DNA of 64,000 nt from Octopus vulgaris (lineage: Eukaryota). Under the pieces are notes generated by a model. It was not told the origin of the DNA. It worked only from the letters and a program-made list of their open reading frames with translations, and made no database searches. Both the position numbers and the translations under genes were made by a program. The stretch is from positions 9,176,001-9,240,000 of the forward strand of contig OX597828.1 of the NCBI GenBank assembly GCA_951406725.2. Direction: 5' to 3'. Position 1 is the first letter of the stretch. The number at the start of each line of letters is the position of its first letter. Below are positions 10,323 through 64,000 of this stretch, piece after piece.

Positions 10323-11389
10323 ATATATGTATATATACATCATATATATATATATGTATGTATATATATATAGTTACATATATATGTATGTATATACAAA
10401 TGTATATAATATGTGTGTTTGTGTGTGTGTTTGAGTGTGTGTGTGTGTAAGTGGCAGAGTCTTCTTGTGTATGTTCGCATGAATGTAAGGCGGTGTGTTT
10501 GTATTTGCGTATATATAAAATATCTTGTAGTATAAATATAAATTTCTCCAGCGGAATAACAGTCTCTTAAAAATGATAATCTATGTTTTTTATGACTTGT
10601 CATGTTTTGTTTAAAATATAGTTATATATCGCCAAATGGTACGAATTCATTATAATCCTCTTCATTTATGTCAGTTCAAGTCACTCGCTGACGTCAAATG
10701 TTGGTAGGTAGTGAGATACAACACATAAACATATAGCAGTAAATAGATACACACACCCACACACATACACATACAAATACATAATTTTTTATTCAAAATA
10801 CCTCAGGAATATATCTTGAATACAGGAATCTATGAAAGAGCTTTATAAACTATACTCAGAGCAATATTGCTTAGACGAGCTAATTGAAGAAAGCAATTCA
10901 GAGTGTATTTATATGGAAAGAAAATATATCTGCAATATCGTAACACGCGTCTTCCTTCTAGAAACCGGTTAATTCTTACACAGAACCTTGTTGGACATTT
11001 ATGAACCGAATTTTTTGATACATTACTTCACCGTACTCAAAGTATGAAAATAACCAATCAATCAATGTCATGTGGATCTACATTAGGTTAAACCTTTGAA
11101 AATTCTACAGCAATATTTACTTTTAATATACATACGGTTTGAATTATTTAATAGATTCAACGAAATAACATACTTGTAACAATTAACTTAAGCCTCCCTT
11201 AAACTGCTCTTTATTAGGTTAAAAAGTTTTTTTAGATGCAAACTCATGCACATACTCACATTTTTGCAAACATGCATACATATATATCCATATATGTGTG
11301 TGCATCTAGGTGTGTCAATTACAAGAAAGTACTGCTGTTATAATAAACTGTATAATAATGTAAACATATGATAGCGTAAAAATATTACA

Positions 11390-11798
11390 ATTTTTGGCTC
11401 AAAGCCAACAATTTCGGTGGGTGGGGGATAAGTCAATTACAGCAACCAAAATGCCCAACTTGCACTTATTTTATCGAGCCTCACAAGATAAAACGCAAAG
11501 TCGAACTCGACGAAGCGCAGCTAAGTTTTTTGCCTGACATGCTAAAGATTCTGCCAGCTCGCCGTCTTATGTAAGCATATAATAATCCATTCTACTATCA
11601 GCACAAGGTCTGAAATATGGAGGAGGGGACTAGTCGATTGTATCGACCCCAGTGTTTCCCTAGTAATTAATTTATCGACCACGTAAAGGATGAAAGGCAA
11701 ATTAGACCTCGGAGGAATTTGAACTCAGAACATAGCGACTGGCAAAATACCGTTCAGAATTTCGCCCAGTTTGCTAACGATTCTGCCACCTCGCCAGC
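11390..11798 (-). mobile_element. Two tandem SINE family A copies
   Basis: Both end ctgccagctcgcc-like (reverse complement of the head). The second copy is flanked by the direct repeat ttatgtaagcWtataataat. Confidence 0.85.
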
Positions 11799-11899
11799 TT
11801 ATGTAAGCTTATAATAATTGCATTCCATCATTTCTTTCAATGTGCAGAAAGAATAGGTGTCATAACCCTTTACCAAAGAAGTAGAATCTTTAGAGAAAG

Positions 11900-13994: not shown

Positions 13995-14187
13995 AACAAT
14001 TGCAGCGTGCAAGGTGTTTATAAGCCATTTAAGAAACACACTAATACCGTCAGATTCACTTCAACATTTAAATTTAAATTTAAAGTTGTCAAAATATTTT
14101 GGTCTCTTGGAAACCGCCACCTGTTCACTGAGAAAATTCTGTACTGCATCTCAGATCAGGTCACTTGCTATGCAAGTACATCTCCGT
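13995..14187 (-). mobile_element. Small PLE-type element with G3-C8 HHR-like motif (14086-14134); same family as 57374-57600
   Basis: Minus strand tt(c)tca-GTGAACA-ggtggc..gagac-cAAA-atat-tt-tgacaa. The sister copy retains gacGAAAatatttt. Flanked by (TA)n and (TG)n. Confidence 0.6.
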
Positions 14188-14193
14188 ATGTGT

Positions 14194-14964: not shown

Positions 14965-15397
14965 TAAAATTTTGGCGCTAGACTTGCAATTCGGTGGATG
15001 GTTAAGTACATCGATGCCAGTGCTCTAGTGGTACTGATTTTATTGCTACTGAATAGATGAAACGTAACATCAAGCTCCGCGGAATTTGATATCAGAATGT
15101 AAACAAGAAATAGACAACGTTAAGCATTTTTCACGGCGTGCTAAAGATTCTATCAGCTTGCAGCCACTGTATAATTATTATTGATTTCAAATTTTGACAC
15201 AAGGCCAGCAAATTCGAGCAAGAGTGTAAATTGATTATATCAGCCCCAGTCGCCTACAGGTACTTATTTTAGCGATCCCGAAAGGATGAAAAGTAAATTC
15301 GACCTCAGTGGAATTTGAACTCAGAAAATATAACGGCGGGCAAAATGCTGCTAACCATTTTGCGCGATGTGCTAACGATTCAACCAGCTCGCCGCCT
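14965..15397 (-). mobile_element. Two tandem SINE family A copies
   Basis: 'cccgaaaggatgaaaagtaaattcgacctcagtggaatttgaactcagaa' and head reverse complement ccagctcgccgcc at ~15397. Confidence 0.85.
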
Positions 15398-16520
15398 TAA
15401 TAATAATTAACAGTTGTTGAATCCCAACATTTTGTTAATCCCAACATTTTGCACTGAAATAAATTAAGAACTGTCATTCATCAAATAACGCTTTGAAGTC
15501 ATTTATTCTTATTTTGGAGTCCAAATTGTAAATCGATATTTACATAAATTTTAAAGAAAAAAACATATATTGCAATTGAAGTCGACATTTGAAATATACC
15601 CAGGAATAAGTTTAAGTACAAAGACCGCACAATCTATGTCAATAGTGTTGCAGGCTATTTCGATCCGATATAATCTATGGCTAGATAACATCCGGAAACC
15701 ATCAAAGACTTATTGGATATCCCATCATTATATAACTCAAACCATGCATTGTTATTTATTCGTCGTAAGATGAATGGTCCTTAACTGATTTATACCACAA
15801 TCTTGCAACTGTCAAATCTCATTTTGGACAGAACCAACAAGGAAGTCTTTACAATTTCGTTCCACCTCTAAAAACAGAAAGCGAATCAGCTTCAATCAAC
15901 TCTATCGTTTCAAAAGAAGGAATAACACATTGCATAACGTGGTTTTATATGCATTGTAACTGGAGCGAGAGGGATTTATACTTGATGATCAAGGAGGAAC
16001 GCACTTCATGAAATGCACAGCAAAGTAATATATTATTACTAGAAATTGCACGCAAATCATACAAGAGTGTTTTAACACAAAAATAAAAGGACTAAAATAC
16101 AGTAAAGCATTCAAAAAGCATTGACAATGCAAGTAGCCTATACATACTCATCTATGCAGCGAAGGTAAAAAAATTCCTAATATAAGATGCTCTATAAATA
16201 GTTTAGACGCATAAGAATTAAATTATTCCAGTAACAGTGATCGATATGGAGAGTGTTTTACCTGTATGACATAATTATACAGCAAATACGAGAGAAGGGG
16301 AGTTTCCTGAAAAGGGAAGGATTATTGTAAGATACATTTCGCCCGTCGCTCGATCCATTGTCTGAAACCACTGCACCATCACCCTTACTATTGCTGGAGG
16401 TTTCTGATTGAAAATAACACGAATTGTGCTGAATTTTTTAGATTGTGGGAAAGTGAGAAAAACTAAATTTAAACAGGAGTATCTAAATTTCACACGAAAT
16501 CCGTATAGCCACCGAGTATG

Positions 16521-18865: not shown

Positions 18866-19372
18866 TTATGTTCTTACTCGTTCAGAAATTCTACTAATTA
18901 TCTTCTCGTTAGTCCATAGAATAAACAGTGATTCATCGGAGCAGACAGGGCACCTCCTGGAAATTATATTGTATGGTTTCTTATAACTTAGCATGAACCG
19001 ATCAATGCTGAATTTCGTTTTATCCTCCTTCAGTTGCCATACAAATAAATACGATAAATGCTCACGCAGAGAAAACATATAGATGTCCTTCGATGAACCT
19101 CTGTATGAGTACAAATCTTCTATATAAATGTACCGTGCACACAAGGGGAGGGTCCTATGCTTACATCGGGCAGACGGCTGATCCATTTAAGAAAAGTTAT
19201 CTTCTCGTTAATCCACAAAAGAAACAGGAATTCCTCGGAGCAGAGATGGCATCTTCCGGAAATTATATTACATGGTTTCGCATACCTTACTATGGACTGA
19301 TTAATGCTGTACTTTGTATTATCCTCCTTTCGTCGTCATACAAAATCGGCTGAAGATGTTGAATGTCTCTTG
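18866..19372 (-). mobile_element. Two tandem Penelope-like GIY-YIG C-terminal fragments
   Basis: LSYLFVWQLKEDKTKFSIDRFMLSYKKPYNIISRRCPVCSDESLFIL matches the PLE 'LS.Y.W.LK....Y.I.W....PYN....C..C..E' motif. A second partial copy lies at 19196-19372. Confidence 0.75.
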
Positions 19373-19454
19373 AATATATATATATATGTATATATATCTA
19401 GCCAAATTCTTCATTACATAGTCTCGAGACTCACACTCGACCACTGTCAGAAAA

Positions 19455-19800
19455 TACAGCAAATCTGGACTTGTTGCAGAATATGACAGTGTCGCAAAAC
19501 ACTAGTCGCCTCTCCATCATCTCACTGGCCCAATCTTTTCCCCGCTTGATATTGGCTGGTCAAAGAAGTGGCTTCCTTGTTGCGACTCTGCCATAGTAAC
19601 CAAGTGTGTGGATATACCTGTCAGCTGTTCTAGTACTGACATCAACGTGTTCTGCTATATCAGAGGACTTGCAACCAGTATTGTGATTTTCTGAAATGTT
19701 ACGCTGACTATGTCCATCTCCAGAAGCACCCACAATACGGCTTCTTTGAAATTGAGAGAGTTCCATGGCTTCTTTTGTACATGACATGATTAAACAGTCA
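19455..19800 (-). mobile_element. Tc1-like transposase N-terminal remnant
   Basis: ELSQFQRSRIVG..GHSQRNIS and VSTRT..RYIHTLGYYGRVATRKPLL are typical Tc1 HTH and linker motifs. Confidence 0.8.
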
Positions 19801-19914
19801 TATATAGAACCTGAAACATAAAAATGTCAATTAATAAAAAGTATAAACATCTAAAAGTTAGAATAAACATAAAACGACGTGTAACGGGATATCTATTAAC
19901 TTCAGTCATGTGCG

Positions 19915-20410: not shown

Positions 20411-20600
20411 ATATATAAATTAGAGAAAAACCACTATTATGTAATTCAAACAATGCTAGACATAAACCATATCATATAGAAAAAATAAAATATATTATAA
20501 AACATAACTAGTTTTATAATATATTTTATTTTTTTCATGATTTGTTTATTGTTGTTTGAATTACATAATAGTGGTTTTTCTGTAATTTATATATATATAT
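20411..20600. repeat. Imperfect palindrome between (TA)n tracts
   Basis: gaaaaaccactattatgtaattcaaacaa pairs with ttgtttgaattacataatagtggtttttc; the inner aaaataaaatatattataaaac pairs with gttttataatatattttatttt. Confidence 0.85.
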
Positions 20601-20610
20601 ATATATATAT

Positions 20611-21498
20611 ATTAATAATTATCGCCATACTAATATGGCAGTCTATAAATATAAAACTAAAGCTCTCGCTGATTAGCTCAAAGAGGCCATCGCCTCTAGC
20701 TAGCTATATGACACACGAATCTGCGTTCATTACAAGCTTCGAACGGAAAAGACCCTGATACGACCTTCAAATCTCCAAGAATAACACATACCTTTTAGGT
20801 TAGCAAATGAAAGAAAACGAATCAACCCAGCTTTAGGTGTCGCTACCGACTGTCTGTTGCAAGATTTTATTTACCTAGTTACAGTGGAATACATCTACTT
20901 GTTTTCAATAATAGAAATATTAAAATTACTAAGTCTCTCTAAAGGAGATTACGGCAGCGTTACTGGATATTAATAGTTATCGCCATCATCATCATCATTG
21001 TCATCATTATCATCACTATCGTCGTCATCATCCTCATCATCATAATCATCATCATCATCATCATCATCATTATTACTACTACTACTACTACTACTACTAC
21101 ACTACTACTACTACTACTACTACTTTTAATATTTCTATTATTGAAAACAAGTGGATGTATTCCACTGTAACTAGGTAAATAAAATCTTCGAACAGACGGT
21201 CAGTAGCGACACCTGCTGGGTCTGACTACGCTGCATTGATAAAGGGCAACAACCCTGAAACATGTGTGCAGATGTCTGACTAGCAAGGTGAAGCGGCTGA
21301 CCTCCCCTGTTCGAAGGTTGTAATGAACGCAGGTTCGTGTGTCATATAGCTAGCTAGAGGCGATGGCCTGTTTGAGCTAATCAGCGACAGCTTTAGTCTT
21401 ATATTTATAGACTGCCATATTAGTATGGCGATAACTATTAATATCCAGTAACGCTGCCGTAATCTCCTTTAGAGAGACTTAGTAATTTTAATATTTCT
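20611..21498. mobile_element. Inverted pair of ~360-bp circularly permuted units (retrozyme/PLE pseudo-LTR-like)
   Basis: 20611-20986 and 21124-21498 are reverse complements with different start points. Each is terminally redundant (18 bp with one mismatch, and 13 bp). Confidence 0.8.
21231..21271 (+). ncRNA. Minimal type I hammerhead motif with U3-A8 core
   Basis: ctgca-TTGATAA-aggg caacaa ccct-GAAA-catg-TG-tgcag. All three stems are intact, but the cleavage triplet is GUG (non-canonical). Confidence 0.7.
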
Positions 21499-24788: not shown

Positions 24789-24820
24789 TGTGTTTGTGTA
24801 GTTATACATACACACATATA

Positions 24821-25486
24821 CCTTAAAGTAAGTTACGTTAACTCTTACTCAAAATTCATTCCCACCGCATTGTACGAAAATACATCTATATGCGTGCAGG
24901 CATCTCGAGAGTCGTCCAGACATTCTAATCATTATCTTCTCGTTAGTCCACAGAATTAACAGGGATTCCTGGGATCAGAGATGGCATCTTCTGGAAATTA
25001 TATTACATGGTTTCGCAATGCTGTTCTTTGTATTATCCTCCTTTAGTCGTCATATAAATCTGCCGAAGATGTTGAATGTCTCTTATTAATTGTCTTAAAA
25101 CTGGCAACATGGTTAAGATAACGGTTCTTAAATGAATCAGCCGTCTGCCCAATCTAAACATAGGGCCCTCCCCTTCTGTGCACGGTACATTTATATACAA
25201 GATTTGTACTCATACAGTGATTCATTGAAGGACATTTTGATTTTTTCTTTGCATGAGCATTTATCGTATTTATTTGTATGGCGACTGAAGAAGGATAAAA
25301 CGAAATACAGCATTGATCGGTCCATTGTATGTTATAAGAAACCATACAATATAATTTCCAGGAGGTGTCGTCTCTGCTCCGAGGAATCCCTGTTTGTTCT
25401 GTGGACTAACGAGAAGATAATTAGTAGACTTTCTGAACGAGTGAGAATGAATTTTGAGTAACCGTTAACTTAATTTACTTTAAGGT
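24821..25486. mobile_element. Inverted pair of Penelope-like GIY-YIG fragments
   Basis: ORF 25132-25461 contains VWRLKKDKTKYSIDRS..KPYNIISRRCRLCSEE; 24821-25084 is a diverged reverse-complement copy. Confidence 0.78.
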
Positions 25487-25499
25487 ATGGATGGCTTAC

Positions 25500-27266: not shown

Positions 27267-27505
27267 GAGAGAGAGAGAGAGAGAGTAAAAACAAAGGAAA
27301 ATGTCCTACCTATTTGAAGACTATGGAAATATTTACAAAACACTTCATTTAAATTTTTCTTCAATTTAATGTATTTTCTTGATTTATTGCGAGTTGAAAA
27401 AGTCGAAAAGATTGAAATCTATTTCGTGATAAAATTCTTTTGCTATTTTCTACCTTAGTTTCCTTTATATGTACATACATTCATACATACATACATATAT
27501 GTATA

Positions 27506-27562
<57 letters not shown>

Positions 27563-27600
27563 CATTTATATACATATATATACATATATTCTAACAAAAA

Positions 27601-27638
27601 CTGTCCGATGAACGGCAACGGGAAACTCAGAGTAACAG
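27601..27638 (+). ncRNA. Minimal type I hammerhead motif (U4C core) in an ~80-bp insert within (TA)n
   Basis: ctgt-CCGATGA-acg gcaa cgg-GAAA-ctcagag-TA-acag. Confidence 0.72.
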
Positions 27639-27665
27639 GTTGTGTTGAATTTTCTGCTGCTTTTA

Positions 27666-27712
<47 letters not shown>

Positions 27713-27736
27713 GTGTGTGTGATTGTGTATAGAAGA

Positions 27737-28171
27737 ATATATTAATAAAAAGAATTCCAACCTTGTCTGATTTTCACGTTTTATTTACAATCTTATAATG
27801 ATATATTATAAGATAATATATTATAATTGAATAAAATAAAATAAAATGAAATAGTAGAATGTTAAATATTCATTCTGATTGAACTAGTACTTTCATGCAT
27901 TGAATTCTGCAATCTTCGGGTTCATGTAGTAGTGTTGACAGTCATGCTTCACAATTTTTGACTGTGTGAAGCATGACTGTCAACACTACTACATGAACCC
28001 GAAGATTGCAGAATTCAATGCATGAAAGTACTAGTTCAATCAGAATGAATATTTAACATTCTACTATTTCATTTTATTTTATTTTATTCAATTATAATAT
28101 ATTATCTTATAATATATCATTATAAGATTGTAAATAAAACGTGAAAATCAGACAAGGTTGGAATTTTTTTA

Positions 28172-28180
<9 letters not shown>
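27737..28180. repeat. Near-perfect 444-bp palindrome (~217-bp arms, 11-nt loop)
   Basis: Arms 27737-27953 and 27965-28180; only one indel seen. Confidence 0.95.
27994..28038 (+). ncRNA. Minimal type I hammerhead motif (U4C core); mirror copy at 27880-27924 (-)
   Basis: tgaac-CCGAAGA-ttgca gaattcaa tgcat-GAAA-gtac-TA-gttca; palindromic stem III AGTACT. Confidence 0.75.
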
Positions 28181-28239
<59 letters not shown>

Positions 28240-28600
28240 GATGATTATGCCTTTTAGGTATGTATATAGGAGTAGGTACATGCATGCACTAACGGAACTC
28301 AGATGTGTACATTCGTCCTTAAATAGCGGGCGTACTTTATAGAATGTTTTGGTGAAAAGCATTCTGCTTACAGCAAATTGGATTGTATGTCCTTCTTCGA
28401 TTCCTGGAAGATACCGATTTCGTGCTTATAAATTATTAGCTCAAGTACAAATTAGAAATTTAATCCGCTATGCTTTTCTCAAAGATTCGCACTTTGTATC
28501 TCTTTCACAAGTCTCAATGTCGCACTGTTTAAATATTATTTATAGTTAAATGTTTGCTTTCTTTTATTAATTAAATAAAGTATTTCAACTGATTTTATTT

Positions 28601-28636
<36 letters not shown>

Positions 28637-28643
<7 letters not shown>

Positions 28644-28940
28644 ATCACGTGACCGACAAGGCTATCAGATGTTGCTACACATCGCTGGTCACAATTCGCT
28701 TCGAATTGTTTTAGCCTTCAAATGACGCCACCCCGCTGGCTAAGTGAGCAGGCCAACAGAAGAAAGAGTGAGAGAAAGTTGCGGCGAAAGAGAACAGCAG
28801 GGGTCGCCACCCTTCCTGCCGGAGCATCGTGGGGCTTTAGGTGTTTTCGCTCATTAAACACGCACAAGCCCGTTCTGGGAATCGAAACCGCGATCCTCCG
28901 ACCGCGAGTCCGTTGCCCTAACCACTGAGCCATTGCGCCT

Positions 28941-28942
<2 letters not shown>
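28637..28942 (-). mobile_element. tRNA-derived SINE family C
   Basis: Head GGAGGCGCAATGGCTCAGTGGTTAGGG...GGTTTCGATTCCC; body shared with 37022-37335. Confidence 0.88.
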
Positions 28943-37021: not shown

Positions 37022-37335
37022 TTCTATTTAAGCGCCCTTTTCAAGCCTAGCCAGGCTTATGGGCCCGGTTTCCCATTTTCTATGGCGTATGGGTTTCCTT
37101 CAGCTGGACGGGACGCCAGTCCATCGCAGCGTTACTCAAGAAACAAGAAGACAGAGAAAGAGAAAGTTGGGGCGAAAGAGTACAACAGGGGTCACCACCA
37201 CCCCTGCCAGAGCCTCGTTGAGCTTTAGGTGTTTTCGCTCAATAAAAACACACAACGCCCGGTCTGGGAATCAAAACCGCGATCCTATGACCGCGAGTCC
37301 GCTGCCCTAACCACTGGGCCATTGCGCCTCCACAC
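37022..37335 (-). mobile_element. SINE family C with 14-bp TSD
   Basis: TSD ataaccaatttatt at 37008-37021 and 37336-37349; tRNA-like head. Confidence 0.92.
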
Positions 37336-38623: not shown

Positions 38624-39048
38624 GGATCTTTTCGGTTTGAATGGCAGTTTTTAACATAATTTCTAGGTAACTAAAAGATTTTAAACTTCGTATACTGGTA
38701 GAATGTGTTTATAAAATATCTTTTTCTCTTGGCTTTATTAAGAAAATTCTATAGTTTGTAAGATATATGTTGTGTTTCTTCAATTTCTGCAATTTCAACC
38801 AATCAGTGACGTCTATTGAGTTAAAAAGCATTCTGTGCCGTATGAATATGTCCCTCGTTTAAGAAACAGATTGGGTTTATTTACATTTGTGAAGAAACAA
38901 AGATACCCTTCCCCCACCCCTAACCCTAACCCTAACCCTAACCCTAAAAGAGATTGAAATGTAATTGATCGATTCTAGGGTCATAATTATGGGCGACAAT
39001 TTCATATGATACCGCTAGAAAAAACTGCCGTTCAAACCGAAAAGATCC
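38624..39048. mobile_element. MITE with 29-bp TIRs and internal (CCCTAA)5
   Basis: ggatcttttcggtttgaatggcagttttt / aaaaactgccgttcaaaccgaaaagatcc; flanking duplication (c/g)gcctctg. Confidence 0.9.
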
Positions 39049-41478: not shown

Positions 41479-41689
41479 ACTAGAAAGAGCATCCAAACTC
41501 AAACTGCTAAATAGTTGTAATTCTGAAATTGGAAGAGAAATAAAAACATTTACCCTTTTCATCCTGGACTATGCATAGTTTCGACAAACTATGCATAGTC
41601 CAGAGATGAAAAGGGTAAATGTTTATATTTCTCTTCCAATTTCAGAATTACAACTATTTAGCGATTTGAGTTTGGCTGCTCTTTCTAGT
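41479..41689. repeat. ~210-bp palindrome centred on an HHR 3' half
   Basis: Arms 41479-41581 and 41586-41689; the minus strand at the centre reads cGAAA-ctatgcatag-TC. Confidence 0.9.
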
Positions 41690-44058: not shown

Positions 44059-45581
44059 CACATATGCGTTCGTTTGAATATATGTAAATGTACATATATA
44101 TACATACACGCACACACTCACTCTCTCCTCCGTCACAATGACACATTTGTGTGTGTGTGTGTACCTGTATATGAGCATGATATCGTCATTTATAATTCTG
44201 TACGATATTCTTGCAACAAAGTATATCCATATATTTCAATTTTTCTTCATTTGCTGTCAGTAAAGTCAACTGTTGAAGGTTTTAGCAATGAAACTCAAAT
44301 AAAACATGGAATATAGCCAGTAAACTCTGATTGGATGGCATCCGATGCCTTATTTACAGTTTTCAACTTTTATCGCATCAATGTGATGGATTTAAAAGAT
44401 TGATCTGAAGGAAAATTGCCAAATGCTTATTCAAATTAAACTTGGTGTCGATTTGCATGTATACATACGTATTCAATTCAAAAATCTCCAACTTCAATAG
44501 ATTTGAATTATTTTCCTTACTCCTATGTATACACAATAAAATCAAAAACACATTTACTCACACACATATAATTATATATACTGAATCACAGACATCAATC
44601 ACTAGTCTAGTAAAAAGCAATCATTTTGCGACTTTGTGGATTTATATTTATGGATACCTAACTCAAATATTATATGGTTTCTTACACAAATATAATTTCC
44701 CTGTCCTCTAAAGTCTTTAATTGAAAATTTCAATGTCAGAATATATTCTGCAAGCTGAAATTTTCTAATATTCGGGTTGCATTTGTAACATATTGTTTAA
44801 TTTAGCTCTTCCTAATCTGTGAATGATTTCAAACATAATTCTCGTGATTACAAACTTTGTAAGATAAGCATCATGGTCCTTACATATCCACCTTTATAGG
44901 CGATCTTTCTTGCTTTTAGAGGTTTCGGTTTCATTAGTCGGGGACAGTTTCTAATGCTTAGAATTTACTCTAATTCGATAACGTATACACAAATCTACCA
45001 GCAGAGAAGGATATGGTTACGTTTGAAGATTTCACTAAGACACATTAATATGAATAATGTTCATTAATATTGGATTATGACCGAAAAATTATACGAGGAC
45101 AAGTTGCCGAAATGACATCCCTCCGATGGATTTCTTGAGTAACGTTACTCGATGGAGTGCACAGCATGGTGATTAGACATTTTGTCCAGATTGGGTCGCA
45201 TTGTTTCCCAAAGAGAGGTCACAGATCCTCTATTAATGACATATCGCAGTAAGGAATCACAAGATAGATTCCGCAGACCGAGTCAACCGACAGAAGACCT
45301 AGCGGTAGATTAACAGACATTTAATTGGTTAATATCCACAATTTCAGTTGATCACTCTTGGGAATCAAGCTGAATTTTGTGCTTCTTTTAGGAACACCCG
45401 TGATGCCTAAGGACTCTTACCCTACACCTCTTTTAGGTATAGTGGGCGAAGAACATGAATATATGATAGTAAGAGCAAGACTAAATATCACATTATGATG
45501 TCTTTGGTAAAGTAATGATACTGATGCAACATCATATTTTAAATTTTTCTTTGATCTAACTCTCGTAAGCAACGTTCTTAT

Positions 45582-46575
45582 TAATAAACCTTTCTACTAT
45601 AGGCATGAGGTCTGAAGATTTGGGGTAGAGGGCTGGTCGATTACATCTACCGCATTGCATGACTGGTACCGTTTTTCATCAAAACCGAAAGGATGAAAGG
45701 CAAAGTCGACCGCAGCTCAGAATTTCAACCGACGTGCTAAAGATCCTGCCAGTTCGCTGCCTTACCCTTATCATTAATAACCCTTTCTACTATAGGCACG
45801 AAGCCTGAAGTTTTGGAGGAGGGGCAAGTCGATTAAATCGACTCCAATATTTCACTGGTACTTAATTTATCGACCCTGAAAGGATGAAGGTCAAAGTCGA
45901 CTTCGGTGAGATTTGAACTTAGAACGTAACGGCAGACGAAATACCTATTTCGTTACTACCCACAAGGGGCTAAACACAGAGAGGACAAACAAGGACAAAC
46001 AAACGGATTAAGTCGATTATATCGACCCCTGTGCGTAACTGGTACTTATTTAATTAACCCCGAAAGGATGATAGGTAAAGTCGACCTCAACGGAATTTGA
46101 ACTCAGAACGTAACGGCAGACGAAATACCTAATTCGGGAGAGTGGTAAGCGGATTACATCGACAGCAGTGGACAACTGGAATTCATTTTATCAACCCTGA
46201 AGTTATGAAGAGCAAAGTCAACCACAACGTAATGTGAAATAAGAAGGTAAAGATGGCCGAAATATCCCAAATAATCTTGTCCGGCGAAATAACAATTCCG
46301 CCAGCTTGTCGACTTAACGAAAAAAGGAAGACTAATAATTCTATCTACTGCATACACACGGCCTCAGACTCAGGGGAAGGGATTAAGTCGATTACATCGA
46401 CCCCAGTGAGTAACTGGTACTCTAATCGAGCCCGAAAGGATGAAAGACAAAGTCGACCTTTGTGGAATATGAACTCAGAACGTAACGGCAGACAAAAAAC
46501 CGCTATGCATTTCGCCGAGCATGCTAACGATCTTGCCAGCTCGCCGCCTTAATATAATAATAATATAATGATAAT

Positions 46576-46650
<75 letters not shown>

Positions 46651-46860
46651 GCTTCAAATTTTGCCACAAAGGCAGCAATTTTGGGAGAGGGATCAGTCGA
46701 TTACATCTACACCAGTGTTCAACTGGTGCTTATTTTATCGAACCCGAAGGATGGAAGGCAAAGTCGACCTCGGCGGAAGTTGAACTCAGAAGGTAGCGAC
46801 GAGCGAAATACCACTAAACATTTCGTCCAGCGCGCTAACAACTCTTCCAGCTCACCACCT
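45582..46860 (-). mobile_element. Tandem cluster of ~6 SINE family A copies
   Basis: Repeated 'cgaaaggatgaaaggcaaagtcgac' and 'gtcgattacatcgac' units about every 180-220 bp, with (TAA)n at 46553-46647. Confidence 0.9.
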
Positions 46861-46921
46861 TATATAATAATAATAATAATGATGATGATGATGATACTAC
46901 TACTACTACTACTACTACTAC

Positions 46922-55074: not shown

Positions 55075-55290
55075 AATAACCCTTTCTATTTTAGGATACG
55101 AAGCTTCAAATTTTGTGGGAGATTGGAATAGTCGATTACATCGATTCCATTGCTCAGCTAGTACTTATTTCGTCGACCCAGAAAGGGAAAATAGCAAAGT
55201 CGACTTTGACTGAATGTGAAATCTGAACGTAAAGGCGGACGTATTGCCGCTAACCTATTTGTCCGATGCGCTAACGATGCTGCAAGAGCC
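55075..55290 (-). mobile_element. SINE family A
   Basis: gtcgattacatcga..gtacttattt..gaaagg..caaagtcgac..cgctaacga. Confidence 0.8.
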
Positions 55291-57122
55291 TTCAATTTAT
55301 TAATAACAATTAACGATCACTGAAAACAAGGCAACAGTATATTGGCAATGATGTAGAACATAGAGAGTTATGGCAAATTTTACACCCATTAAGCAGTGAA
55401 GAAATGTTAGAATCCCATTCGTTCTCATTGTACTATATTCTTCCTTTCTTCATAAGTAATAGTTACAAATATATTCTAAATATTTTCCCTATAAATTTCA
55501 TTCCTTACAAGTTTTGTAGCTAACACTTTTCTTTATCACAAGTTTCACTTCGGGGTTATTCGTGCTGTATGCTTAGTTAAACTCACTTTGAAATCCTTTT
55601 AGATTCTCCTGAGTCACAGATTTATTCGGTAAATATATTTCAAGCTACTTTGTTTATATTTTCTTTTTTTTTATATCCCATTTATCTAATATAACTTATG
55701 TCGTCTAATCACCATTATCTTACTCATCATTGCCATTGTCTGCTATATTTTCCTTCTCCTGTTTCTCTTGTAACAAGGGTTCTGTCTCTTTGATTACCAC
55801 TTAAGATTTAATTCATATATGTATTTTCTTATCTAAAATCGTAAATATATCAATCGGAGATTCAGACAGCTTTCTGTAATCTCGATTAATCTATGTATTG
55901 ACACAAATTCAATTTTGTTCTGTGTCAAGGAAAAAAAAAAGTAGGTAACTGAAAAAATCTGAAAACCTAATCCTGACAGCAAACCAACGCAAAAAAAAGT
56001 GATAAGAAATGCGTTAATAATACCATTTGAAGATTATTTGGGTGTCTGTAGAGCAAAAACATAACTGTTTTAACGAGATGACCTTTTTTGCTATTTTCAG
56101 CCGTCAACAACAGAAGCGCTTTCATTTGATCTCGTCACGTCTATGATATTAGCCGAAGAAAGCAGCTGCCTAGGAATACAGATGCAGAATACCAAACTGA
56201 ATAAACAAACAAATTTAATAAACATCAAGAGACTAAGCCGGTTAAAACATCTGAAAATGGGAAAAAGAGAATAAATATCGGGGCTAAATAACAGTTTGAC
56301 AGCAATCGGAATTATATTGTTATATTATAGTTTCTCATCATGTGATTTTGTAACCCACTGAGAGACATAGATTGAAATACAAGCTACTTGATGGCTGAGT
56401 ATTCTATTCTGTTTCGATTTCTCTTCGAACCTATTTAACTATAGTCACACAATGTTCTTGGAAGAGACACGGTAATCGTAATATCTGGATGATTTAATGT
56501 GCTCAAATTGATGAGAATGTGGAGTTACAGTATCGGGTTCATGTGAATTTCAACAATTGCATCGAACTATACATCACTTATGGAGGAAACTATGTCGAAT
56601 AGAATTATTAAAATATGCATTTTCGCCTATTTATCCCTGGTTCTACTCCCAACCTCACAATACGAGATATCAACTGATGCCCAATCAATTTTTGTATATA
56701 GATGTACCTAAACCAGTATAGACCAGTACTTCATCTGAAATCTTAATTCGAACATTTTACAAAGTGATCGAAAAAATCTTTCAAAAGAAGAAAATCTCTA
56801 AAGTTTCTCTTTCTAGCTTAAGTAAAGTTTAGAGGTACTGTAGCAAAACTGGTCATTCCGTATTAATCTAATGCATACAAAAAGGAATATTATAATTTCA
56901 AAGAAATAAAATAGGGACTTAGAAATGATTGAATGGCTGTGTGTATGTGTGTGCGTGTGTTTGTGTGTGTGTCTGTGTGTGTGTCTGTAAGTGTGCGTGA
57001 GTGTGCGTGTGCATGTGTGTATACGTTCATATATCTACCTGTGCATCTATCTATACATACATACATACGTACATGCACAAACATGAACGCGCAGACACAT
57101 TCACACACACCGGTGTATATGG

Positions 57123-57373: not shown

Positions 57374-57600
57374 AACAATTGCAGTGTGAAAGGTGTTTAT
57401 AAGCCATTTCAGAACACACAAAAACCGTTAGATTCACTAGTGACGAAAATATTTTGAAAAATTAAATTTAGATGTTGAAGTGAATCTAACGGTTTTTGTG
57501 TGTTTCTTAAATGGTTTATAAAGACCTTCCACGCTGCAATTGTTTTCGTTCCAGCACACGATCTCAGATCAGGTCACTTGCCATGCAAGTACATCTCCGT
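57374..57600. mobile_element. Palindromic PLE-type element (arms 57374-57438 / 57479-57544) with HHR 3' half
   Basis: Same family as 13995-14187; gacGAAAatatttt near 57442; flanked by (TA)n. Confidence 0.8.
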
Positions 57601-57619
57601 AATATATATATATATATAA

Positions 57620-61761: not shown

Positions 61762-64000
61762 CACCCAAACCCGCCCAAACAGGAGTACCACCACCCAAAC
61801 AAACCCTGTGGATAAATAACATCCAAAATAAAATTTAAAAAAATTAGAAAAGACCTGTCGATTCTTAATGAAATCAGCAAACAATCAACGCTACTGAGCA
61901 ACAAAAAGAGAACAAAAATGCTCCGCAAATATAACATCACAGAAAATGATTTGCCGGAGATAAAAGAAAAGCTGAAGCAAGATATCCTTGCCAAAGCTCA
62001 AAGGATCCGCCGGTACGAGAAACGCCAACGCTTCTTTGAACAGAACAAAAAGTTCAACTCCAACCCCAAAAAGTTCTACCAAGAACTGGGAAAAAATAAA
62101 ATAGAAGTCACTGCAGCACCAACGGCAGAAGAACTGGAAGAATTCTGGAGAGAAATATGGTCGGCGAACGAACAGCCAAAAAAAGGAGTATCAAAATAAC
62201 AAACACGGCATCTGAACAACTTTGGACCCCCATAACAACTGAAGAGGTCACCCAGGCACTGCAAAAACTAAACAACTGGAAGGCACCTGGGCATGACAAG
62301 ATCCCCAACTTCTGGTTGAAATATCTAACAGGAATGCACAAAAAGCTGGCTGAAAACTTTAACAGCATACTAGCAGAGCCAGAGACAATGCCTGAATGGC
62401 TCACGAAGGGGAAAACCATCTTAATTCCCAAATCAAATGAAACAGCAAAACCAGAAAACTACAGACCAATAACCTGCCTCCCTACTATGTTCAAGGCATT
62501 TACTGCAGTGATATCGCAAAGGCTGAACAAGCACATGGACGAAAACAAACTGTTCCCAGAAGAGCAGAAAGGATGCCGCAAAGCCTCATATGGCTGTAAA
62601 GATCAACTAATGATTAATAAAGCCGTAACTGAAGACAGCCACAGAAAGAAGAAAGGCCTCAGTATGGCCTGGATTGACTACAAAAAGGCGTTTGATAGCA
62701 TCCCCCACACATGGATCCTCGAAACACTAGCCATTAACAAAGTAGCACCAACAATCATAAAATTCATAGAGCACTCTATGAATAAATGGCAAACAGTCCT
62801 ACACCTCCAAACAAAAGAGGGACTCATGAACACCAAAGACATCCCCATTAGAAGAGGAATATTCCAGGGAGACACGCTCTCTCCACTCCTTTTCTGCTTG
62901 GCACTGTCACCTCTATCTGATATGCTAAATAGAACTGGATGCGGATATAAATGTTACGGCAAAACGATCAGCCACCTTTTATATATGGGTGACCTAAAAC
63001 TATACGCTGCAAATGACAAACAGCTGGAAACACTATTAAAGACAGTTCATGGATTTACCAAAGAAATAGATATGAAATTTGGATTAGAAAAATGCGCCAA
63101 AGTAACCATGAAAAGAGGAAAACTAGTTAAGAGTAACAACATCACACTAGATAAAACCAATGAAATAAAAGAATTAGACCAAAGCCAAACTTACAAATAC
63201 TTAGGAATCCATGAACTAGATAAGACACAACACACACAAATGAAAGAGAAAATAAAAAAGAATATTATAGACGAGTTAGATCAATACTAAAAACAGAGCT
63301 CAAAGCTAAAAACAAGAAAATAGGTATCAACACTTTAGCTGTCCCAGTTATAAGTTACAGCTACAATATCCTTAACTGGACACGAAATGAACTGACCAAA
63401 ATAGATAGGAAAACAAGAAAAATAATGACAGGATCTAGGATGCATCACCCAAAATCTGACATAGAAAGACTATATATACAACGTATAGAAGGTGGTAGAG
63501 GCCTTATACAGCTGGAAAACTACTATAAAATAACCACCATAGGACTGCAAAAATATCTACTTCAGAAGGAAGGAAAACTGATCCAGATAGCAGCAAAACA
63601 CGAGCAAAACAAAAAACTGTTCTCAGTATTTAAGGAAGCTGACAAATACAAACAAGAAATCATACCACCTAATAAACATGAAGAAGAAGAAGAAGATCAA
63701 GAAACAACAAAAGCTATAAAACAAATGAAATCCAAACTAAAAATAGAACAGCAACGAACCATGATAAAACGATGGCAAGAAAAGCCCCTTCATGGTAAAT
63801 ACTGGACTAAACTAAACGCAAAAGAAATAGACAAAGAAAAATCCCAGCAATGGTTGAGAAGCTCAGGACTCAAAGCAGAAACAGAGGGATTTTTAATTGC
63901 AGCACAAGACCAAAGCCTCCCCACCAGAAATTACCAAAAACATGTAATAAAAAGAAATATTACAAGTAACTGCAGAATATGTGGAGATGGACAAGAAACA
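61760..64000 (+). mobile_element. 5'-truncated R4/Dong-like non-LTR retrotransposon (RT pseudogene), runs off the window
   Basis: KAPGHDKIPNFWLK, NYRPITCLPT, WIDYKKAFDS, GIFQGDTLSPLLF, HLLYMGDLK, YKYLG, ELKAKNK..INTLAVP, RMHHPKSD..RLY, AAQDQSL and CRICG. Frameshifts at ~62190 and ~63260. Confidence 0.92.

Follow-up and report, generated by a model that had tools for sequence, protein, structure and literature searches.

A young 444-base palindrome with outward-reading hammerhead-like motifs in Octopus vulgaris, probably derived from a PLE insertion

How does a stretch of animal DNA come to consist of two copies of one sequence that face away from each other and are identical in all but one base? 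The question is raised by a palindrome at 27737-28180 of a 64,000-nucleotide stretch of the Octopus vulgaris genome (contig OX597828.1; the whole stretch is called the window here, and positions are counted from its first base). Its arms enclose a loop of 11 nt, each arm carries an outward-reading hammerhead-like motif, (TA)n lies at the ends, and there is no open reading frame. The best explanation, which we hold with roughly even confidence, is a young non-coding insertion of a Penelope-like element (PLE), a type of retrotransposon. It would consist of two 5'-truncated, hammerhead-bearing 3' ends in head-to-head orientation next to (TA)n, one arm having been copied from the other by fold-back. 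The parts of this explanation differ in strength: an origin from a PLE is probable, while the fold-back route, once that origin is granted, is only somewhat favored.

Geometry, context and age of the palindrome

Alignment of the two arms of the 444-base palindrome gives 216 matches, no mismatches and one gap, an extra G at 27752; going outward from the centre, the match is exact for 201 nt. The left arm (27737..27953, 217 nt, minus strand) is likely the 5'-truncated 3' end of a PLE-type element and reads outward. The right arm (27965..28180, 216 nt, plus strand) would be a copy of the same element end; it too reads outward, and it is non-coding and AT-rich past the hammerhead. Between them, the unpaired loop (27954..27964) likely holds the extra part of the longer copy together with the fold-back point. 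Six-frame translation of the palindrome yielded short frames only. Folded as RNA, the plus strand forms a single hairpin at -331 kcal/mol, compared with -72 +/- 4.8 in shuffled sequences, none of which (0/100) folded as well. The original prediction had described ~217-bp arms, an 11-nt loop, one indel and (TA)n alongside, all of which were found again, the (TA)n on both sides. It had also proposed a long hairpin RNA from either strand; the fold is indeed predicted, for the plus strand directly and for the minus strand via symmetry, should the locus be transcribed.

A (TA)31 array (28175..28236), the likely insertion target, abuts the right arm, and a (TA)20 array (27671..27710) lies to the left, 26 nt from the left arm. 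The ends of the palindrome merge into (TA)n, where no TSD is readable, and the flanks outside the palindrome and the (TA)n are mutually unrelated in sequence. A microsatellite or AT-rich target is expected of an inverted insertion derived from a PLE and is present here, though as evidence this context is weak, given that (TA)n arrays of at least 8 units number 79 in the window. The 26 nt found on the left only (27711..27736, minus strand) are AC-rich on the minus strand and may be the "tail" that a PLE leaves on one side, or else (TG)n of the host in a decayed state. Of the window's 158 (TA)n edges, 17 match or exceed this TG-richness, so that these two possibilities stand about even.

The absence of substitutions in 216 pairs places the upper 95% bound on divergence between the arms at ~1.4%, or at 2.2% with the indel counted. 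Three other palindromes in the window carry 4/103, 3/76 and 5/65 mismatches, so that the 444-bp palindrome is the youngest of the four measured, and the youth originally proposed for it is supported. Possible activity of the family, which had also been suggested, cannot be deduced from this: matching arms date their own copying or last homogenisation rather than activity of the family, and no second copy of the arm was found when the proposed copy-number search was run within the 64-kb window (blastn; best non-self match 14 nt, E 0.28).

The hammerhead-like motif and its predicted behavior in RNA

The right arm contains a type-I hammerhead-like motif (27994..28038, plus strand), predicted by a relaxed descriptor scan and by folding. 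Helix I pairs 27994-27998 with 28034-28038 (5 bp), and the core CCGAAGA that follows at 27999-28005 carries U4C. Helix II pairs 28007-28010 with 28019-28022 (4 bp), its first pair being a U10.1-U11.1 at 28006/28023; GAAA occupies 28024-28027, and helix III is palindromic and 6 nt long (28027-28032). Cleavage is predicted at a CUA site, 3' of A28033. A mirror copy lies in the left arm (27880..27924, minus strand), with a cut predicted at 27885 by symmetry. Two hammerheads had been claimed for the palindrome, and a motif does lie at these positions in each arm, but the two are one sequence mirrored and not independent, and they count as a single piece of evidence.

The custom type-I descriptor was written after the motif had been seen and permits both U4C and an unpaired first pair in helix II. 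Over both strands of the 64 kb it matched three times, at 27994-28038 (plus), 27924-27880 (minus) and 27601-27638 (plus), against a mean of 0.05 matches per shuffled window; the class with a short helix III did not occur in 100 shuffles. A looser scan adds a fourth motif at 21231-21271 (4 observed versus 0.15 expected). Rfam gave no match at gathering score in the whole 64-kb window, and no hammerhead family was among the 43 matches at E<=10 in 27300-28700. These 43 were rejected, being mostly microRNA models that scored hairpin shape or (TA)n and lying in every case below gathering score.

How close is this motif to known hammerheads? A canonical one would have the core C3-U4-G5-A6-N7-G8-A9, a paired 10.1-11.1 and an Rfam match; the arm motif instead has U4C, a U-U at 10.1-11.1 and no such match. 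In PMC3088659 both variants are reported as tolerated in natural hammerheads, U4C lowers activity in vitro strongly, and the strict filter used there would discard the arm motif on two counts. The features of the dimeric PLE-type hammerhead are present: three helices, G12-A13-A14, A15.1-U16.1, H17 and a short palindromic helix III. According to the cited passages on metazoan PLEs, their hammerheads have such a helix III (PMC4209133) and act as dimers (PMC4209133; PMC6765202). The arm motif resembles these minimal hammerheads in being of type I, in the 5 bp of its helix I, in its palindromic helix III and NUH cleavage triplet, and in occurring as an opposite-strand pair. Unlike them it has U4C, a 4-bp helix II, no Rfam match, and U10.1-U11.1 in place of G10.1-C11.1, a pair that PMC4209133 in those passages describes as highly conserved. 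Pairs of PLE hammerheads on opposite strands are given there as 100-700 bp apart, whereas those of the palindrome are separated by 70 nt. A hammerhead is expected in the pLTR or at the 3' end of a PLE-derived insertion, and one motif per arm was found, with a descriptor relaxed post hoc. Of 28 occurrences of the core words in the supplement of PMC8557442, the 4 passages inspected held coding-region matches only.

A neighboring, unrelated hammerhead-like motif (27601..27638, plus strand) lies 100 nt to the left of the palindrome, on a fragment of ~75 nt (27590-27665) between two (TA)n arrays, and was missing from the features listed originally. Its core is CCGATGA, again with U4C; helix II has 2 bp, helix III is near-palindromic and the site is GUA. 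The fragment is likely a separate PLE end. A 3'-end motif common to it and the arms was considered and discarded as not significant (p=0.14).

In isolation the arm motif folds with pair probabilities of 0.76-0.98 in helices I and II. These fall to 0.23-0.65 for the motif helices in a transcript that starts in the loop and to 0.000 in a read-through RNA, whose hairpin is predicted to bury the ribozyme in a 216-bp duplex and so abolish the ribozyme helices. The monomer (-6.1 kcal/mol) folds no better than shuffled sequences (z -0.59), whereas a two-strand cofold gives a dimer at -18.6 kcal/mol with an intermolecular helix III and with helix II kept. By this modeling, the hammerheads of a parent RNA would cut only as dimers, via the palindromic helix III. 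No cis dimer can form from one transcript of the palindrome, since each strand has one sense motif preceded by its own antisense. The prediction for this locus, if transcribed, is double-stranded RNA and not a working pair of ribozymes, and its perfect duplex of 216 bp should by prediction serve Dicer or ADAR well as a substrate, directed against the family.

Inverted structures and coding remnants elsewhere in the window

The palindrome is not the only inverted structure in this DNA, in which head-to-head PLE-type insertions are real and common. An older palindrome at 41479-41689 has 4 mismatches in 103, a 4-nt loop and a hairpin extension of ~33 nt at its right end only; its centre resembles a hammerhead's 3' half whose helix III is palindromic and 12 nt long, a weak resemblance (1 observed versus 0.33 per shuffle). 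The palindrome at 20418-20587 is AT-rich and decayed (3 mismatches, 6 gaps, a spacer of 7-9 nt), with (TA)n on its right and TA-rich sequence on its left. At 57374-57544 the structure is asymmetric, with 5 mismatches in 65, a 40-nt spacer and a one-sided extension of ~57 nt. The whole of 57374-57601 and 13996-14188 are two insertions of one family, the latter consisting of a single long arm and then an inverted piece of the extension seen in the former. A further inverted arrangement, at 20612-21498, shows 81.5% identity over 325 nt, with 71 nt at 100%, and contains the hammerhead-like motif at 21231-21271, which from its U3/A8 core and the G at position 17 is probably uncleavable. Evidence that points to a PLE independently exists for some of these older palindromes and not for others. 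An inverted pair at 42006-42186/42716-42882 (80% identity) lies ~530 nt apart.

Decayed coding fragments resembling an endonuclease occur at 18866-19392 and 24818-25488, in inverted and tandem order. Among them, one head-to-head pair of GIY-YIG-like remnants occupies 25243-24894 on the minus strand and 25273-25443 on the plus strand, with tblastn E values of about 1e-9 to 1e-8, and all matches by tblastn and by a GIY-YIG-like profile are confined to 18.9-19.4 kb and 24.9-25.4 kb. With one nearby endonuclease-like fragment as query, phmmer returned 19 relatives, in which Pfam found no GIY-YIG match, and a word-index protein search with it returned 0 of 126 candidates. The GIY-YIG and Neptune-like labels accordingly come from motifs (a Cys-rich linker, YIG and a terminal SKCRH). 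An inversion junction is common to 18871-19203 and 25115-25447 at 90% identity, which suggests that a rearranged GIY-YIG-like unit was copied whole. The arms of the 444-base palindrome are linked to these remnants by context only, which does not assign them to the same family.

Neither RT nor endonuclease sequence was found within the arm by six-frame translation, tblastn or the profile built from the GIY-YIG-like matches, and the parent element was not found in the window. All 223 of the 223 non-repetitive ORFs of at least 50 aa were searched with Pfam; no host exon appeared, and the two matches were to RVT_1 (62100-63287) and, below threshold, to HTH_11 (19563-19826). The arm and its motif had no match in GTDB genomes (gapped motif pattern), plasmids or phages, and hence show no sign of a vector or prokaryotic origin. 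A sigma-70 promoter scan, a model ill-suited to animal DNA, stayed at background (9 versus 8.0 +/- 2.4). A literature search, which covered the writing on variant hammerheads and its supplements in part, returned no publication on the family of the palindrome.

Origin of the palindrome

The PLE origin put forward in the original prediction is supported by the anatomy of the motif, by the outward, head-to-head arms and by the inverted PLE-type structures of the window, among them the GIY-YIG-like head-to-head remnants, the further hammerhead-like motifs and the older palindromes. Against it stand the missing parent, an arm with neither RT nor endonuclease, the lack of a second copy in the window and the Rfam-negative motif. 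An autonomous EN+ PLE would have a single ORF encoding a telomerase-like RT and a GIY-YIG endonuclease, which the palindrome does not have; as it holds short frames only and no GIY-YIG match, we file it as a likely PLE-derived fragment and not as a PLE. The inverted insertions of EN+ PLEs (Penelope/Poseidon, Neptune, Nematis, Hydra), as presented in the cited parts of PMC8557442 and PMC3846280, lie head to head with 3' ends outward and a palindrome at the junction. The arms are arranged in the same way, a polarity that assumes the hammerhead to mark the sense strand. Inverted 5'-truncated copies, one-sided tails of 30-40 bp and a preference for (TA)n as target are described in the same parts of PMC8557442, and PMC8969392 likewise describes truncated copies in inverted order, with a tail on one side and microsatellites as targets. 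The palindrome further resembles EN+ PLE insertions in its microsatellite context, in the hammerhead near its 3' end and in its possible one-sided tail, and its arm length is close to the 181-218 bp of the pLTRs of Adineta Pen2a. Unlike the EN+ PLE insertions described in these excerpts, it has no ORF in or between its arms, is nearly perfectly symmetrical and shows no readable TSD, and its putative tail of 26 nt is shorter than 30-40 bp. As a structure it is an ordinary, clean case of one already described for PLEs.

How would a PLE leave such a footprint? In the fold-back route, an RT-endonuclease encoded elsewhere and acting in trans would nick the AT-rich target, and ~230 nt would be reverse-transcribed from the 3' end of the element RNA. 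The end of the nascent DNA would then snap back at the loop through a few complementary bases and be extended on itself as far as the element end. This new end would be joined to the other side of the break, aided by the self-complementary (TA)n, and repair or replication would open the hairpin into a palindrome, with the hammerheads as predicted passengers. Palindromes at head-to-head PLE junctions have been interpreted as the product of self-priming on an antisense template (PMC3846280, in the section cited), whereas fold-back is placed here on the nascent DNA; the mechanism of head-to-head insertion is stated as open in the cited sections of both PMC8557442 and PMC3846280. The short loop speaks for fold-back. 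Three of the four measured palindromes have spacers of at most 11 nt (11, 4 and 9 nt), and a gap this small is expected in 2-9% of cases if truncation points are independent and uniform. This count is biased, as symmetric palindromes are easier to detect and the structures at 57374, 20612 and 24894-25443 are asymmetric. A fold-back primer of 4-6 bp would be weak (-0.7 to -2.7 kcal/mol).

The main rival keeps the PLE insertion and replaces fold-back with target-primed reverse transcription that takes place twice, once per target strand. The two events would start at two nearby positions of the RNA, which would leave a tail on one side, and their truncated ends would be joined. We regard it as rather unlikely, even though the PAc protein favors it over fold-back: according to PMC11167929, both strands of the target are cut and extended by PAc in vitro, the protein is a predicted dimer, and the tail is defined by its two start sites. 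The AC-rich extension of 26 nt on the left arm alone would fit such a process, but it may be the host microsatellite discussed above. Asymmetric head-to-head pairs at 57374-57544, with its 40-nt spacer, and at 24894-25443 point the same way, while the 11 nt between the truncation points, a closeness that independent pairs would show in 2-9% of cases, point to fold-back.

After two-primer synthesis come, in this order, duplication after insertion, an artefact and a MITE-like origin. Conversion of quasi-palindromes is an established phenomenon, and template switching during replication, or conversion between arms, could have made an older single PLE end into a perfect palindrome or maintained it as one, in which case the palindrome would be young and yet uninformative on retrotransposition activity. 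The two non-canonical hammerhead positions present in both arms would then possibly be decay copied into the second arm. We consider this decidedly unlikely: the unrelated motif at 27601-27638 has U4C as well, both variants are natural ones (PMC3088659), and the 4-8% mismatches retained by the three other palindromes show that arms are not routinely homogenised in this window. That the second arm is a fold-back artefact of sequencing or assembly is less probable still. It would account for arms that differ by a single base. Among ONT genomic reads ~0.6% are fold-back reads, which tend to arise repeatedly at given places (PMC12870357), and inverted PLE structures cause difficulty in assemblies from short reads (PMC8557442). 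On the other side, the mirror ends at the element ends and distinct unique sequence follows on each side, the window is free of N, and similarly built palindromes with diverged arms at 41479, 20418 and 57374, which an artefact would not produce, argue against one, as do the older inverted structures of the window more generally, some of which code GIY-YIG-like remnants.

Least probable of all is insertion at TA of a DNA transposon of the foldback or MITE type, with the hammerhead-like motif present by chance or captured. Foldback elements and MITEs have long terminal inverted repeats, are non-coding and occur in a TA context. The palindrome is like them in all three respects, since the unit consists wholly of inverted repeats, and no TSD can be read in the (TA)n. 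It is unlike them in the hammerhead of its arms, and neither transposase-type termini nor multiple unit-length copies are evident. The absence of the motif class from shuffled windows, the lack of a second copy of the termini in 64 kb and the GIY-YIG-like protein encoded by neighboring inverted structures all weigh toward a PLE.

A separate possibility, which we think improbable, is that the palindrome moves in its own right. It would then be a non-autonomous "foldback retrozyme" that has a hammerhead on each strand, is copied whole by proteins of a PLE and gives a hairpin RNA. The junction shared by the two GIY-YIG-like regions at 18871-19203 and 25115-25447 is a hint that PLE units, once inverted, can be copied again in full, and a long hairpin RNA of this kind might silence its own family or feed A-to-I editing. 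Non-LTR retrozymes, as the cited parts of PMC7229834 and bioRxiv 10.64898/2026.07.22.740005 present them, are likewise non-coding units of a few hundred nucleotides with a type-I hammerhead, probably derived from PLEs. They form head-to-tail tandems with two hammerheads on the same strand, whereas the copies here are inverted, no tandem array runs over the arms and no RNA would carry two sense motifs. The palindrome resembles the end product of a PLE insertion and has the makeup of neither an autonomous PLE, nor a retrozyme, nor a canonical hammerhead. Taken alone it is of little weight, a further inverted footprint of PLE type in an animal genome rich in repeats. It is of value as a clean test case, as fold-back self-priming and two-primer synthesis can be told apart at a young junction whose arms are identical, once this is set against the family consensus and the empty allele.

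The surrounding DNA is AT-rich and dense in microsatellites, and microsatellite-rich repeats of this sort are familiar from octopus genomes. SINE-like dispersed families with 68-89% identity are represented by 28758-28941 and 37146-37330, and further SINE-like repeats in the same range of identity lie at 574-799, 11388-11818, 15017-15407, 45580-46863 and 55075-55306. A non-LTR-type RT ORF (62100-63287, Pfam RVT_1 E 2e-30) with adjoining frames occupies 61816-64000 and runs off the end of the window, and an interstitial telomere-type hexamer, CCCTAA, is repeated five times at 38918-38947.
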